IMG/VR virus record: IMGVR_UViG_3300024261_000015
Location: 18,711-82,710 of that record
Length of the DNA stretch: 64,000 bases
Strand: one strand, 5' to 3'
Source: a virus
The notes below the pieces were generated by a model. It did not search any database. It was not told the DNA's origin and saw only the letters and a list, made by a program, of their open reading frames with translations. Positions 18,191-33,775 of this stretch are shown piece after piece; the stretch's first letter is position 1; every line of letters begins with the position of its first letter. Both the position numbers and the translations under genes were made by a program.

Positions 18191-19439
18191 AAAAGACCAG
18201 GACAGTTATGTTGTATACAACCCCCACATTGATGAGTTCGTGCGTGTTAAAAAATTCACGGACGTAGAATTAGGGACAATTGTTGTAGCAATAGGAAAAT
18301 TGATTGACCAGCCAGGGGTTAAGATTGGAGCGTATGTACGCAATGTCGTTACTAGTACTGTTGAGGGGCACACTAGGTTTGACCTGTCGGAAGTAGCCGA
18401 GTCTCTATTTGAGTGTGTTATAGAAGTCTATCCTATATTTCAGATAGATTTCGTATGTAAGACTTTAAATGAAATTGGTGAGCTTGACGCTCAACTGCCG
18501 AAAGGGAGGCTTCTTACGTTATCTGAAATAAACAAGTTAACTGCACGTATCAAGGATAAGCTTATTGGGCAACCAGAAGCTGTCGATGAGTGCATGAAAT
18601 CCATTAAACTGCTTAGCTCTGGACTCGGTGAGTTCGTATCTTTGTTCTTTATCGGACCTACAGGTGTAGGTAAGACAGAACTAGCTCGTTTGTTAGCCAA
18701 GGAATACTTAGGGGACCCGAAAAAACTATTAAAGATTAATTGTGGGGAGTACTCCACAGGGCATGAATATGCCAAACTAATCGGTAGTCCTCCTGGATAT
18801 ATTGGTCATAACGAAAAGGGTATTTTATCTGAAAAAGCCGAGCAGTCTTCCGAATGGATTATTTTGTTTGATGAAATCGAGAAGGCTCACCCAAAATTGT
18901 TGAATCTTCTCCTAGGATTTCTAGATGATGGTAAGTTGATGGATAGCCAGGGCACTGAGCTTGATTTTACGGACTCTATCGTCTGTTTTACAAGCAATGT
19001 AGGTATTAAAGGCAACGTGGGTAAGAATTTGCTAGGGTTTGGGGAAGATATTAGAGGTTATGAAGCTTCTAAGAGTATAATTGAGAGTGAGTTCAAGGAA
19101 ACCTTTAGCCCTGAGTTCATAAATCGCTTGGATGGCATAGTGTACTTCAATCAGCTTACAAAAGATGATGCCACTACGATAGCCAGAATCAATCTAAAAC
19201 CTCTACCTGTAAGAACAACAAAGAAACTGGTGGATTATGTCGTTGATAACTCCTTTTCTCTTGAATATGGTGCTAGAAACATCAAAAGATTTATCAGGAA
19301 TCATGTAACTATTAAAATTGCTGAGAAGATTCTCGAAGACGGTAAAACTTTGTCCTATAAGCCCGTATTTGACGATAAAAAATTAATCTCTGTAGAAGAA
19401 ATTTCCAAGCCTAAGGCGTTAAAAAATTCTGATAATTAG
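18183..19439 (+). CDS. ClpA/ClpB-like AAA+ ATPase with only the second nucleotide-binding domain
   Basis: LIGQPEAV; GPTGVGKTELA; LIGSPPGYIG; LFDEIEKAHP; FSPEFINRLD; YGARNIKR. Confidence 0.9.
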   Translation: MPKKDQDSYVVYNPHIDEFVRVKKFTDVELGTIVVAIGKLIDQPGVKIGAYVRNVVTSTVEGHTRFDLSEVAESLFECVIEVYPIFQIDFVCKTLNEIGELDAQLPKGRLLTLSEINKLTARIKDKLIGQPEAVDECMKSIKLLSSGLGEFVSLFFIGPTGVGKTELARLLAKEYLGDPKKLLKINCGEYSTGHEYAKLIGSPPGYIGHNEKGILSEKAEQSSEWIILFDEIEKAHPKLLNLLLGFLDDGKLMDSQGTELDFTDSIVCFTSNVGIKGNVGKNLLGFGEDIRGYEASKSIIESEFKETFSPEFINRLDGIVYFNQLTKDDATTIARINLKPLPVRTTKKLVDYVVDNSFSLEYGARNIKRFIRNHVTIKIAEKILEDGKTLSYKPVFDDKKLISVEEISKPKALKNSDN

Positions 19440-28234: not shown

Positions 28235-28560
28235 GAGTTAGGTACACAGAAAAAGAGGTTTTAGAAAACCCTATGAAGCATATTAGAGGTTATTGCAGGT
28301 ACAAGTCCTTTACATTGAAAGGTAATGAGACGGACTCGCGCTTTGAAGCACACAGCGAAGTTTATGGGAAAATACACCTTGCTGTAAGGTGGGGTATATC
28401 GCGGTACGCTAAACTCCCAGCTAACAGTACTAATATTTTTGATACCAAGCGATTCGTACTAGACCTTTGGAATGGCGAAATCGTTTGGCAGAACTTTGAT
28501 AAAACTAACCCCCATACCTATAAGTTTAAAGGTATAGGTAACAACTACAAAACCTACTAA
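28231..28560 (+). CDS. hypothetical protein
   Basis: ATGA overlap with upstream ORF. Confidence 0.55.
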   Translation: MRVRYTEKEVLENPMKHIRGYCRYKSFTLKGNETDSRFEAHSEVYGKIHLAVRWGISRYAKLPANSTNIFDTKRFVLDLWNGEIVWQNFDKTNPHTYKFKGIGNNYKTY

Positions 28561-30726: not shown

Positions 30727-31018
30727 ACTAAGAAAAGTCAAACCCCCATTTTAACCCCATGAAATCCCCTCAGAAGGAAAAGTCAAGTGCGTGCGCCTTA
30801 CAGCTCACAGGAGGGGGTTTCTATCTATGCACCCCTTATACAAAAATCACTAAGAAAAGTCAAGTTTGGATTTTTCACACTCGTAAACATGCACGAAACA
30901 CACATTAAACTGGAAGCAAAATCTGCTCGTGGGTCGAACGAGAAAAGTCAAGTGGCAGCTCCAGCGGGCAGCCCCTACGCTAGGGAGGTAACTTGTATCA
31001 CATACAACTATGTAAAGT

Positions 31019-31096
31019 TGGTAGGGGGAATGGGATTCGAACCCATAACCTTTCATATATAAGATGAATGCACTAACCTGATTGTGCTATCCCCCT
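31019..31096 (-). tRNA. tRNA-Ile(TAT)
   Basis: AGGGGGA acceptor; GCAC D-stem; TTCAT-CTTATAT-ATGAA; GGTTCGAATCC; CCA. Confidence 0.92.
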
Positions 31097-31468
31097 ACCG
31101 AAGACTTTAATTTTTATAACCTAATTGTAAGAGAGCGAAAAAGCGTTTAGTTTTTATACGGGCTTGCTTTTCCGCCCTCCAAGAGTACCGATGAGCTGCA
31201 ATAGCCTTTCGATGCTACCATTATACCATGACGCATTTGAATCACCTAATGTTTTAGGTAATAGTGGAAAAAATACCATTACTTTGGGAAATCCGCCAAA
31301 AGAGTATGAAATTTCACCGTGCGTAACCCCTTTAGTACCAAGGACTTAGGTCGATTGGGGCCCCGCGTGCGGGGTCGTGTCAAGTAAGAACCCCCCTACT
31401 AACCACTAGGGCTTTCAGGGGCGCTCTGAGCCTAAACCCTATTTTACCTCGCTCAGACGAGGGGAGGC

Positions 31469-31813
31469 TTACGCCTCCAGACCTATCTCACTAGCAAGGG
31501 TTTCAGCCAGAGCCTTCCGCGTAGAGCGCAAAGCCTCAATTTGGATATTCGCCTCCTTGCGCTTCGTGGTAGCTTCGGAGAGGCGTTCTTGCCACTCCAC
31601 TACCCGTGCCTTGAAGTTCTCAATCTTATCCTCTCCCTCTGAAGCCCAACGGTTGAACTTCAGCATGGATACCTGAACGGCTTTGATTTTCTCATCAAGA
31701 GCCTGAATCTCAGGGGATTCGTTGATTTGCGCTTTGTTCTCCTTGGCGATGAGAGCGGCGAGTTGTGCTTGCGTTTCCGCAATACGGTCAGAGACGGGAC
31801 GATGCTTAGTCAT
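31469..31813 (-). CDS. coiled-coil protein
   Basis: helical heptads; TTGACT-N17-TATAAT promoter at about 31872-31900. Confidence 0.7.
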   Translation of the reverse strand: MTKHRPVSDRIAETQAQLAALIAKENKAQINESPEIQALDEKIKAVQVSMLKFNRWASEGEDKIENFKARVVEWQERLSEATTKRKEANIQIEALRSTRKALAETLASEIGLEA

Positions 31814-32121
31814 AATTTGTTACCTAGTAAAATGTTAGTGAGAGAGGGGGTTGCCCTCGTTGTATGGTATCATTATACCATAAGGAAAGAGAAAGTCAAG
31901 CCCTAAAGTGGGGAAACTTTCAAGAAAAGTCAAGTCCCTGGGTTCACTCCACAGAACCACAGGATATAGGTGGAGAATACCACCGTGAACAGGCAACCGC
32001 CTGCGAGATAGAAAAAGAATTGGGCTCTTTCGAGCGGGTCGTAGTGAGACATATGCTTATTATACTGTAAGAAAAGTCAAAAGTCAAGCCCTATCTGAGG
32101 AAAATGCTCGTCTAGGTTGAG

Positions 32122-32204
32122 TGGAGGAGGTGCGGGGATTCGAACCCCGTTCCACGCAAGTTCCCGCAAGGGGCGTTCCCACGTGTCGATACCAGTACAC
32201 CCCC
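32122..32204 (-). ncRNA. tmRNA-like RNA consisting only of the tRNA-like domain (83 nt)
   Basis: 5' GGGGGTGTACTGGTATCGAC (ssrA-type start, no D stem); G3-U70 pair; CACGTGGG/CTTGCGTG helix; CGGGG-TTCGAAT-CCCCG; CACCTCC-T-CCA. Confidence 0.75.
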
Positions 32205-32212
32205 CGAAGGGT

Positions 32213-32449
32213 CTAGTTCCCTTGCGTTGCCTCGTAAGGTTTACGTTTAGAGCCAGCGTGGTTACCGTAGTGCTTTCCGCAAGCCATAACGGGCAAGCGT
32301 CTACGCACGGAGCGATAAGCATCTAGCGTCCTCAAGGCATAGGCGGGAGTAAACAGCCTGGAATTATGAGCCATCGCAAAATGACTCCCGAGAACGCGGG
32401 AAATGAGGTTGAGAGTGTTGTTTCTGAGAGTGTTGTGATTTTGTTTCAT
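32213..32449 (-). CDS. leaderless basic 78-aa ORF, probably cotranscribed with the mini-tmRNA
   Basis: TTGCGT-N17-TATAAT-N6-ATG. Confidence 0.55.
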   Translation of the reverse strand: MKQNHNTLRNNTLNLISRVLGSHFAMAHNSRLFTPAYALRTLDAYRSVRRRLPVMACGKHYGNHAGSKRKPYEATQGN

Positions 32450-32599
32450 GCTTACATTATACCCGCTCCCGTGCCCAGACGCAAGTACTAAATAAAGAAA
32501 ATGCGTGAAAAAACGTAAGTCGTGTAGTACCAAGGACTTACGACGAATCGGGGCCCCCGCCCCTATTTTATATTTATATTTTGAGGATTTTATTATTAT

Positions 32600-32788
32600 T
32601 CAACCCCTGAATATTTCTTTATCTTCGACCTCTTCAATTGTACATTCTTCCAAACAATCCATGCACCAATAATAATCATCCATCCATAACTTAGCTAAAC
32701 TTTGCGAATTAGGTTTGTTTATCGGGACCATAACGCTTCCTTGTTGGTGAATATCTCTTCCACCGCAATCTGAACATATTGTAATCAT
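32600..32788 (-). CDS. small CxxC...CxxC zinc-finger protein
   Basis: CSDC...CMDC; AAGGAG RBS. Confidence 0.65.
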   Translation of the reverse strand: MITICSDCGGRDIHQQGSVMVPINKPNSQSLAKLWMDDYYWCMDCLEECTIEEVEDKEIFRG

Positions 32789-32807
32789 TTTATCTCCTTT
32801 TATTATT

Positions 32808-33482
32808 TTAGTGGGTTGCAAATCTAACTGTTTTTGTGGTCATCCAGCATAATCCACATGAGGCACAATCTTTGACTTTTCCTGTCTGTTCTGGACAATC
32901 AAAGGACTTGCCCTCAAATGATTCATCGGCGGCATAACTCCAATTTTCTTCGAATGGTCCTTGAGTCGGAACTAATTTTCCATCGTATGCTTTATTCCCC
33001 GAATGACGAATAACGCAACGGTCAGGATATTCATTATTCAGCCTCCAAATAGCGTGTGCAATATTATCTCCCTTGCGAGCGGTATAACCAAACAAGCAAA
33101 GTTTCGAGTGCTTTTCTAGCATCTCTCGCCAGAACTGAATATAATCTACGGAATAAAAATCACCTAGAACATGTAATCGAATGACGATGCCATGTTTATG
33201 TTTCGCGAGCAATGTTTCAATTTCACGCTCCAAAATTATATCTATATTGTGAGGCTTGAATCGGTGCGCGAATGGCATATTATTCCCATAGCAGTCATTC
33301 CAATGGTGACAAGTTGTGGGGCAAGTTGTTCTTTCTTCCAGCGTGAGAGAATATAATCTTTTCCCTTTCCACTTCTTTGAACTAACCACGAACCCTAACT
33401 TTTTATTTCCGCTCCCTTTTTTGAGGGTCTTACCTTCTACGGGTGTGCGGAGCGACTTCTGGAATATGCTTTGTACTTTCAT
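32808..33482 (-). CDS. phage Gp88-like cysteine-rich protein
   Basis: TCPTTC....CY; RLHVLGDF; FGYT; CPEQ.....CASCGLCW. Confidence 0.75.
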   Translation of the reverse strand: MKVQSIFQKSLRTPVEGKTLKKGSGNKKLGFVVSSKKWKGKRLYSLTLEERTTCPTTCHHWNDCYGNNMPFAHRFKPHNIDIILEREIETLLAKHKHGIVIRLHVLGDFYSVDYIQFWREMLEKHSKLCLFGYTARKGDNIAHAIWRLNNEYPDRCVIRHSGNKAYDGKLVPTQGPFEENWSYAADESFEGKSFDCPEQTGKVKDCASCGLCWMTTKTVRFATH

Positions 33483-33775
33483 TCCGCCATTGTAAACTAT
33501 GGGGGGTGCCGTGTCAATAGCCTAGATGGGTAAAATGCGTGAAAATGTGAGAAAAACGTAAGTCGTGCAGTACCAAGGACTTACGACGGCGCGGGGCCCC
33601 GCGCCTGCCATTTTGACAGGGTTTGGGTCACTATGTTCTGCCAAGATGGCAAAAAGCGGAGAAAATCAGCTTTTTAGAACCCCTTTTTTTTGAACATGCG
33701 CTTATGTCAAAATCTACTGTGTTTTGGTAGCACTTTTTCCCGAATTGCACCATATGGTACACACGGGCCTTATTC

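Follow-up and report, generated by a model that had tools for sequence, protein, structure and literature searches.

A phage gene for a tag-less mini-tmRNA consisting of the tRNA-like domain alone, and its possible role in the inhibition of trans-translation

Almost all bacteria carry out trans-translation, which is regarded as a target for drugs. We analysed a 64,000-nucleotide (nt) stretch of viral DNA (the window; positions 18,711 to 82,710 of IMG/VR virus record IMGVR_UViG_3300024261_000015) that carries an RNA gene of the transfer-messenger RNA (tmRNA) type. The whole record is 82,710 bp long, is estimated to be 76% complete, and encodes a DNA polymerase, an SbcC-like nuclease, a DnaB-type helicase, a ribonucleotide reductase and a portal protein of the T4 type. 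On the minus strand, from 32204 to 32122, the window contains a phage gene for a tag-less mini-tmRNA, i.e. a tmRNA that consists of the tRNA-like domain (TLD) alone (Table 1). The first-pass annotation, made from the DNA letters, had proposed an 83-nt tmRNA mimic without an mRNA-like domain at this site, and this proposal held, as the Rfam tmRNA model RF00023 matches the RNA above its gathering score; the coordinates were exact and the strand is the minus strand. The ssrA-type 5' end that it quoted is present as the reverse complement of the plus strand, and the other features that it listed, namely the lack of a D stem, the G3-U70 pair, an 8-bp helix 2, a canonical T arm and an encoded CCA, were each found in the sequence or the fold.

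The RF00023 match scored 54.8 bits (gathering score 47; E 9.1e-19) and spans model positions 1-374, of which positions 1-28 and 335-374 are aligned and 306 internal positions are replaced by 15 nt. This insert lies between the two strands of helix 2 and leaves no room for a resume codon or for a tag frame with a stop. Pseudoknots PK1-PK4, or replacements for them, are absent from the RNA, where a single 3-bp hairpin stands between the helix-2 strands; the suggestion that the tag frame and pseudoknots had been exchanged for a small CCC/GGG hairpin was thus borne out. A permissive rescan of 30900-32700 returned the same RF00023 match (E 2.6e-20) and nothing further that was new, and a degenerate TLD motif occurred once in the window compared with 0 of 100 shuffles. 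There is one TLD copy in the 82.7-kb record.

The 8 pairs of helix 2 comprise 5 Watson-Crick and 3 G-U pairs and sit on a G.A/A.G step that is paired in the Rfam model too, and the loop of the CCC/GGG hairpin is 4 or 5 nt long, there being four C for three G with both registers possible. We considered whether these parts could instead form the anticodon arm of a tRNA that lacks a D arm. This is very improbable, because the loop has 4-5 nt and its stem, which tops an internal loop, has 3 bp, in place of the 7-nt loop and 5-bp stem of an anticodon arm, and because both the length and the sequence of the hairpin loop vary over the family described below, GNRA-type tetraloops included. Nor does the RNA score as an ordinary tRNA: ARAGORN, whose calls in the window are tRNA-Leu(UAA) and tRNA-Ile(UAU), both of them ordinary, called neither a tRNA nor a tmRNA at 32122-32204, and RF00023 was kept as the best model within the tRNA clan at this site, over the tRNA and mitochondrial tmRNA models. 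The order of the parts (5' acceptor strand, helix 2, T arm, 3' acceptor strand) agrees with the earlier exclusion of a permuted two-piece tmRNA; the alpha, beta and cyano forms are ruled out, as the 3' acceptor piece does not lie upstream.

Table 1. Features of the mini-tmRNA gene and of the DNA around it (window coordinates).
Feature	Coordinates	Strand	Evidence or remark
TLD-only mini-tmRNA gene, 83 nt	32122..32204	-	Rfam RF00023 54.8 bits; R1 78.7 bits; DS6A family
Acceptor stem 5' strand, RNA positions 1-7, with G3	32198..32204	-	7/7 pairs with 32126-32132
Stemless D-loop analogue, positions 8-19, GG and UCGA motifs	32186..32197	-	aligned to RF00023 positions 8-19
Helix 2 (20-27 with 45-52), A-rich internal loop and 3-bp GC hairpin (32-42)	32153..32185	-	minimum-free-energy fold
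T arm, positions 56-72, 5-bp stem, loop UUCGAAU	32133..32149	-	Rfam match and fold
Acceptor stem 3' strand, positions 73-79, with U70	32126..32132	-	G3:U70 in 99/100 unique family sequences listed
Discriminator U (32125) and encoded CCA (32124-32122)	32122..32125	-	read from sequence
78-aa open reading frame (32449-32216; stop 32215-32213)	32213..32449	-	conserved ~77-aa phage family; 8 nt before the RNA
Putative sigma-70-type promoter TTGCGT, 17 nt, TATAAT, 6 nt to ATG	32456..32484	-	read by eye
Palindrome, 8-bp arms, 13-nt spacer, then T6; terminator-like boundary upstream of promoter	32508..32542	-	sequence
Promoter TTGACT, 17 nt, TATAAT, start of next cassette downstream of the RNA	32059..32087	-	scan, 11/12 matches

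We searched IMG/VR with a motif that fixed only GGGG..G, GG, TCGA and the T loop, with 20-50 nt between, and obtained at least 120 viral loci with a mini-tmRNA. The 121 loci that we examined include 119 complete copies, among them the window's own (L001), and 2 that are cut by contig ends, and they reduce to 100 unique sequences. Among these 100 listed sequences all seven acceptor pairs are formed in 96, the G3:U70 pair is present in 99, and CCA is encoded in 35; the discriminator is A in 96, U in 2 (the window and L035) and G in 2 (L065 and L087, apparently not members). As the motif did not extend to the discriminator, to U70 or to the 3' acceptor strand, the counts for these are independent of the search, whereas the GG and TCGA of the D loop were included in the motif. 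ARAGORN called a tmRNA in 4 of the 121 sources with such RNAs, the window not being one of them. The mini-tmRNA family is large and is overlooked by standard annotation.

A covariance model (R1), built from 22 sequences with the window's D-loop length and run on the window and 99 loci, gave 102 matches, of which 98 scored 44.8-87.2 bits (78.7 for the window) and 4 weak ones (at most 31.8 bits) are probably tRNAs. In the alignment of all 102 (A3), which retains the weak matches and which, being fitted to the R1 model, favours the structure somewhat, 94.7% of the cells are paired compared with 65.7% in shuffles, and the covariation score is 0.686 compared with 0.147 in shuffles and ∼0.08 with slid partners. 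A second, independent set (A7) holds 21 RNAs, i.e. 14 complete copies found downstream of a neighbouring protein gene, the copy of locus L140 (both described below), the window, four contigs with a U discriminator and phage DS6A; here 94.1% of the cells are paired (79.6% in shuffles) and the covariation score is 0.424 (0.154 in shuffles). Changes on both sides of a pair occur in 16 of 22 pairs in A3 and 14 of 22 in A7, including 8/8 and 7/8 respectively of the model pairs of helix 2; the T stem has 100% of its cells paired, with 3 of its 5 pairs covarying (A3, A7). In the acceptor stem, pairs 5:68 and 6:67 show covariation over the family (A3), while G3:U70, found in 21 of 21 RNAs in A7, is invariant, and this argues for selection on alanine identity.

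The same data bear on the idea that the RNA is a non-functional remnant, i.e. an ssrA copy in decay or a piece of attP type that remained after integration into a host ssrA. The accessible parts of PMC4131195 and PMC9004378 describe tmRNA genes as common integration sites and their fragments as present in prophages. However, an attP core comprises the 3' part only, whereas the window RNA has both ends, paired at 7 of 7 positions, and compensatory changes are seen even between close relatives (pairs 23:49 and 57:71, window and L035). No match to a tyrosine integrase (PF00589) was found in the 76%-complete record, and the TLD of a Prochlorococcus cell with a related phage contig differs from the phage RNA in its acceptor stem. 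Covariation across the family contradicts a remnant, as do the homologues, a large group of RNAs that are all just as short and that differ by compensatory changes; this disposes of the decayed full-length ssrA that the first-pass annotation had raised as an objection to its own proposal. We regard the remnant explanation as hardly credible.

One phage RNA of this kind was known. 'Mycobacterium phage DS6A (TLD only)' is listed among tmRNAs in the portions of PMC4131195 and PMC11915505 available to us, and in the searchable published literature DS6A is the sole phage TLD-only case named. R1 matched the DS6A genome (JN698994; L122) with 61.9 bits at 28478-28560, where the RNA is unannotated in the GenBank record; its A-rich stretch and GC hairpin inside helix 2 are as in many virome members. 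Judged by sequence, the window RNA is a member of this already known DS6A-type class of phage TLD-only tmRNAs.

The discriminator of the window RNA is U rather than A, as the first pass had read it. U73 is the discriminator of bacterial tRNA-Gly and tRNA-Cys. The closest virome relative among the matches listed, L035, has U73 as well, although 8 of its bases differ from the window, the differences including the two double compensatory changes given above. A metagenome scan in which the discriminator was left free, with the T loop fixed as GGTTCGAATCC and the acceptor sequence also fixed, found U73 in 10 of 10 contigs (JGI and TARA marine samples), bringing the distinct U73 sequences to 6 with the window and L035 included. 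A relative 90-99% similar to the window, from sequencing run X21, has A at the discriminator and a T-loop change that places it outside the scan motif, and A73 is found in 13 of the 14 relatives obtained through the neighbouring protein, the fourteenth being L035's own contig. U73 is therefore a stable trait of a subclade and not an error, and it is not a trait of the whole lineage. Its fixation in a marine subclade is a new aspect of the window element. A73 aids recognition by AlaRS, and for an archaeal enzyme the available text of PMC11392972 reports that every substitution of A73 lowered minihelix charging.

The second new aspect, suggested by comparison of sequences, is a gene-then-RNA order involving a 78-aa open reading frame (ORF). 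Along the minus strand the window reads palindrome and T6, promoter, 6 nt, the ATG of this ORF, its stop, 8 nt and the RNA. The promoter directly upstream of the ORF was omitted by our promoter scan, its -35 box fitting at 3 of 6 bases only. A 77-aa homologue lies just upstream of the RNA in L035 (36% identity to the window ORF, E 3e-8), and a profile of these two sequences retrieved one more homologue, in L119, whose ATG is equally far from a promoter of consensus sequence. The protein family has 599 homologues at E <= 0.001, mostly of ∼77 aa and with no informative name. With the homologues in L035 and L119, this family indicates by sequence conservation that the 78-aa ORF is real. The 244 nt upstream of the RNA are no more stable than shuffles (z -0.38); this stretch is a conserved ORF and not a structured RNA. 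Neither Pfam nor PHROG gave a match for the family, none of its PDB matches was better than E 0.095, and there was no usable Atlas match and no tblastn match in isolate phages. Searches of isolate phages with DNA were similar: blastn of 31000-33500 gave no match, and blastn with the 83-nt RNA alone gave only T-arm-sized matches (E >= 0.02).

We used the protein to retrieve 19 viral loci, two of which are the contigs of L035 and L119, and searched them with R1. A complete mini-tmRNA was found 6-348 nt downstream of the ORF on the same strand in 14 of the 19; of the rest, one has a partial copy cut by the contig end (L129), one has a copy 2 kb upstream (L140), two have none (L130, L131) and one could not be judged (L145). 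The ORF is also upstream of the RNA in 9 of the 10 metagenome contigs, the tenth being too short to judge, and CCA is encoded in 15 of the 15 complete operon-type members (the window and 14 loci). In five loci (the window, L137, L138, L142 and L143) TATAAT, with the same 17-nt spacer, is followed by 6 nt and then the ATG, which implies that the mRNA of the 78-aa gene is leaderless, as it appears to be from these sequences; the other loci carry a Shine-Dalgarno sequence. The usual gene order is ORF, RNA and a GP88-like gene, whereas in the window the GP88-like gene is upstream, and so the ORF and the RNA have moved together. As these phages are related, however, the two may be linked through inherited synteny and not through function.

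The linkage could also mean that the tRNA-like fold is a processing signal, i.e. an RNase P site that defines or protects the 3' end of the 78-aa mRNA, the RNA itself having no role in trans-translation. This would fit the start of the RNA 8 nt past the stop codon, the gene-then-RNA order in the protein-found loci and metagenome contigs, and the stable GC hairpins that usually lie between the ORF and the RNA. We nevertheless think it quite unlikely: RNase P needs neither G3:U70 nor A73, a tmRNA-type D loop or helix 2, yet all are conserved; the 78-aa protein profile adjoins the RNA in only 3 sources among the motif-scan loci, the window included; and in DS6A the RNA stands in another context. 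When the ORFs within 3 kb of the RNA were clustered over 97 TLD loci (96 from the motif scan and the window), no protein occurred in more than 9 loci, which speaks against this explanation too. A universal protein partner of the mini-tmRNA, which we had also considered, was dropped on the same result.

Several side observations concern the layout of these loci. L143 has two copies of the small gene on the same strand (1967-2212 and 2501-2734, ∼290 nt apart) upstream of one mini-tmRNA. In L132 (2717-3064) and L035 (13813-13958) the spacer between gene and RNA is expanded by repeats of a GC-rich hairpin unit, which each time ends in a CCCACCTTC-like leader; L132 has three to four such units, and L035 has a duplicated 3' end of the ORF. 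Palindromes of the form TAAGTC-N13-GACTTA, among them the one upstream of the putative promoter of the 78-aa gene, occur 10 times in the window compared with 3.7 expected, four of them exact (22901, 32516, 33559 and 38669) and six with 1-2 mismatches. Most lie just upstream of early minus-strand promoters, the same palindrome follows the mini-tmRNA in L035 and L119, and they look like cassette boundaries or terminators. A match to the Pistol self-cleaving ribozyme (31386-31462, minus strand; 48.3 bits, gathering score 34.5) directly follows the stop of a 114-aa ORF (31813-31469), ∼290 nt upstream of tRNA-Ile(UAU) (31096-31019).

Twenty seawater DNA runs contain at least 0.81 of the sampled words, and one of these runs may be the source of the window. 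In X21, the sole RNA-library (metatranscriptome) run, the share is 0.17, and contigs 90-99% alike span 31001-32558 and not 32827-33522. Contigs break at 32204 and at 32114; these breaks match a second contig type, which has only the RNA in common with the window, and we read them as assembly branch points and not as ends of the RNA. This second type (window 32114-32204; runs X2, X7 and X13) shares the RNA only, with 8-9 differences and L035-type flanks; it is present in the same seawater samples, which indicates that two co-occurring phage types share the RNA module. Among species-representative genomes the protein family had one match, on a 130.6-kb contig (L156/L133) in a Prochlorococcus single-cell genome, which carries the small gene, a mini-tmRNA and a portal gene whose product is 48% identical to that of the window. 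The cell's own tmRNA is an ordinary two-piece molecule with a tag frame, and its acceptor stem differs from that of the phage RNA. Relatives of the window phage may therefore infect picocyanobacteria, which is a weak hint for the relatives and not a host assignment for the window phage.

We favour, with a probability of roughly 55%, the interpretation that the mini-tmRNA competes with the host tmRNA and that its net effect during infection would be to inhibit trans-translation tagging. The RNA would be transcribed early, from the sigma-70-type promoter and together with the upstream 78-aa gene; by analogy with tRNA and tmRNA biology, RNase P would then cut it at G1 and it would be trimmed to the encoded CCA. 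The retained motifs suggest that host SmpB would bind it through the D-loop analogue, the T loop and the base of helix 2, and that it could be alanylated through G3:U70, probably less efficiently owing to U73. It would then compete with the tmRNA of the host for SmpB and EF-Tu and for ribosomes stalled with an empty A site, and, having no resume codon or tag frame, it could not let proteins be tagged for degradation. No SmpB gene was found in the 82.7-kb record (76% complete), so the RNA would have to use the SmpB of the host. Published work offers precedents for parts of this scheme. The TLD is the crucial SmpB-binding region and has been co-crystallised with SmpB, according to the text seen of PMC3022190. 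A DS6A-like TLD-only molecule is described, in the sections consulted of PMC4131195 and PMC11915505, as strongly inhibiting tmRNA in E. coli, perhaps via SmpB titration. For Sphingobium phage Lacusarx, the part of the source at hand suggests that its tmRNA counteracts host tagging.

Several points weigh against inhibition of tagging. The folding energy of the RNA is unremarkable compared with shuffles (z = -0.23), so that the case for the RNA rests on homology and covariation and not on stability. For the window RNA, transcription with the ORF, release, charging and competition are all steps that we infer from the DNA, and the X21 contigs, which include the RNA and the ORF, do not help here, as contigs, whether covering or gapped, cannot show transcription. 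The benefit to a phage of inhibiting tagging is conjecture. U73 replaces an AlaRS determinant and should weaken charging. The inhibitory TLD-only molecule was effective whether chargeable or not (PMC4131195, in the portion available), and pure titration of SmpB therefore leaves the G3:U70 pair in 99 of the 100 sequences unexplained. The retention of this pair indicates a step after charging, which fits rescue of ribosomes without tagging equally well.

In such tag-less rescue the alanylated mini-tmRNA, with host SmpB and EF-Tu, would enter stalled ribosomes and accept the nascent chain; the peptidyl-RNA would then be released, either through drop-off with peptidyl-tRNA hydrolase or through the action of a host release factor, and ribosomes would be freed while the product escapes marking for proteolysis, which could aid a phage with heavily cleaved transcripts. 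Alanine identity is under strong selection (G3:U70 in 99 and A73 in 96 of the 100 sequences listed) and the operon-type members all encode CCA, as this explanation would predict. A truncated TLD-only tmRNA undergoes peptidyl transfer in vitro, as stated in the part seen of PMC3895274, and tmRNAs that lack a coding sequence (CDS) persist alongside SmpB in some mitochondria and plastids, the plastid genes being ∼65 bp long (PMC11915505, text available in part). However, the RNA provides no stop codon with which to finish the reaction, genes of the ArfB/RF-1 type or for peptidyl-tRNA hydrolase were not found in the 76%-complete record, U73 should weaken charging in this subclade, and the sole experimental report, as relayed by PMC4131195 and PMC11915505 in the passages accessible, concerns inhibition rather than rescue. 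We therefore consider tag-less rescue possible, at rather low odds. Both functions that the first-pass annotation had put forward, an SmpB/EF-Tu decoy and rescue without tagging, thus head our ranking, in that order. As G3:U70 hardly varies, charging would seem to matter, and simple titration of SmpB has no need of it; the inhibition and tag-less rescue models are for this reason closer to each other than the wording of the literature suggests. U73 pulls the opposite way for its subclade.

A more speculative reading, which we consider doubtful, is that the U73 subclade RNA and the upstream 78-aa gene form a two-part anti-rescue module in which U73 is selected and the protein works with the RNA. 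Selection of U73, which is found in 6 distinct sequences and in different phage backgrounds, could yield a poorly charged and long-lived trap for SmpB; alternatively, through U73 a different synthetase or editing enzyme could come to act on the RNA. The conserved small protein would be translated from the same transcript, which appears to be leaderless, and would bind e.g. the RNA, SmpB or the ribosome.

If this RNA does block or circumvent trans-translation, phages would offer in it a natural and widespread tool that is ready for use, and it would suggest that ribosome rescue is of importance in the conflict between phage and host. The window adds a marine lineage to a large unannotated family beyond DS6A, its fixed U73 is a natural experiment on the need for charging in the function of the RNA, and the linked 78-aa gene is a candidate partner of the mini-tmRNA.

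Comparison with known systems places the window RNA among natural and engineered reductions of tmRNA. It shares with standard bacterial tmRNA (ssrA, RF00023) the entire tRNA-like domain, including the acceptor stem, G3:U70, the D-loop analogue, the base of helix 2 and the T arm, and differs in having no resume codon, tag frame or pseudoknots and in having U in place of A as the discriminator. The two-piece cyanobacterial tmRNA of the Prochlorococcus single-cell genome has the same TLD architecture and G3:U70, but it is permuted, in two pieces, tag-encoding and of a different acceptor sequence, whereas the phage RNA is in one piece and tag-less. The TLD fragments made in the laboratory are of the same design, i.e. 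a TLD with a loop-capped helix 2, and they bind SmpB and accept peptide on stalled ribosomes (PMC3022190 and PMC3895274, as far as their available text goes); these were engineered from bacterial tmRNAs, whereas the window RNA is a natural, evolving gene. The CDS-less organellar tmRNAs of jakobid mitochondria and Mallomonadaceae plastids are likewise reduced naturally to the tRNA-like domain, as the part seen of PMC11915505 describes, but they occur together with a nucleus-encoded SmpB and are presumed to be helpful to the organelle, whereas the window RNA is viral and presumably acts against or around the host system. The closest parallel in kind is the DS6A RNA, which is also phage-encoded and 83 nt long with its ends in the standard order, and which has G3:U70, a tmRNA-type D loop, a canonical T arm, and an A-rich stretch followed by a short GC hairpin closing helix 2. 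DS6A is a temperate actinophage with an integrase, whose RNA lies between gp33 and the DNA polymerase III gene, has A as the discriminator and does not have an encoded CCA; the window phage is an uncultured marine phage with a T4-type portal, whose RNA stands in a unit with the 78-aa gene, has U as the discriminator and has its CCA encoded.

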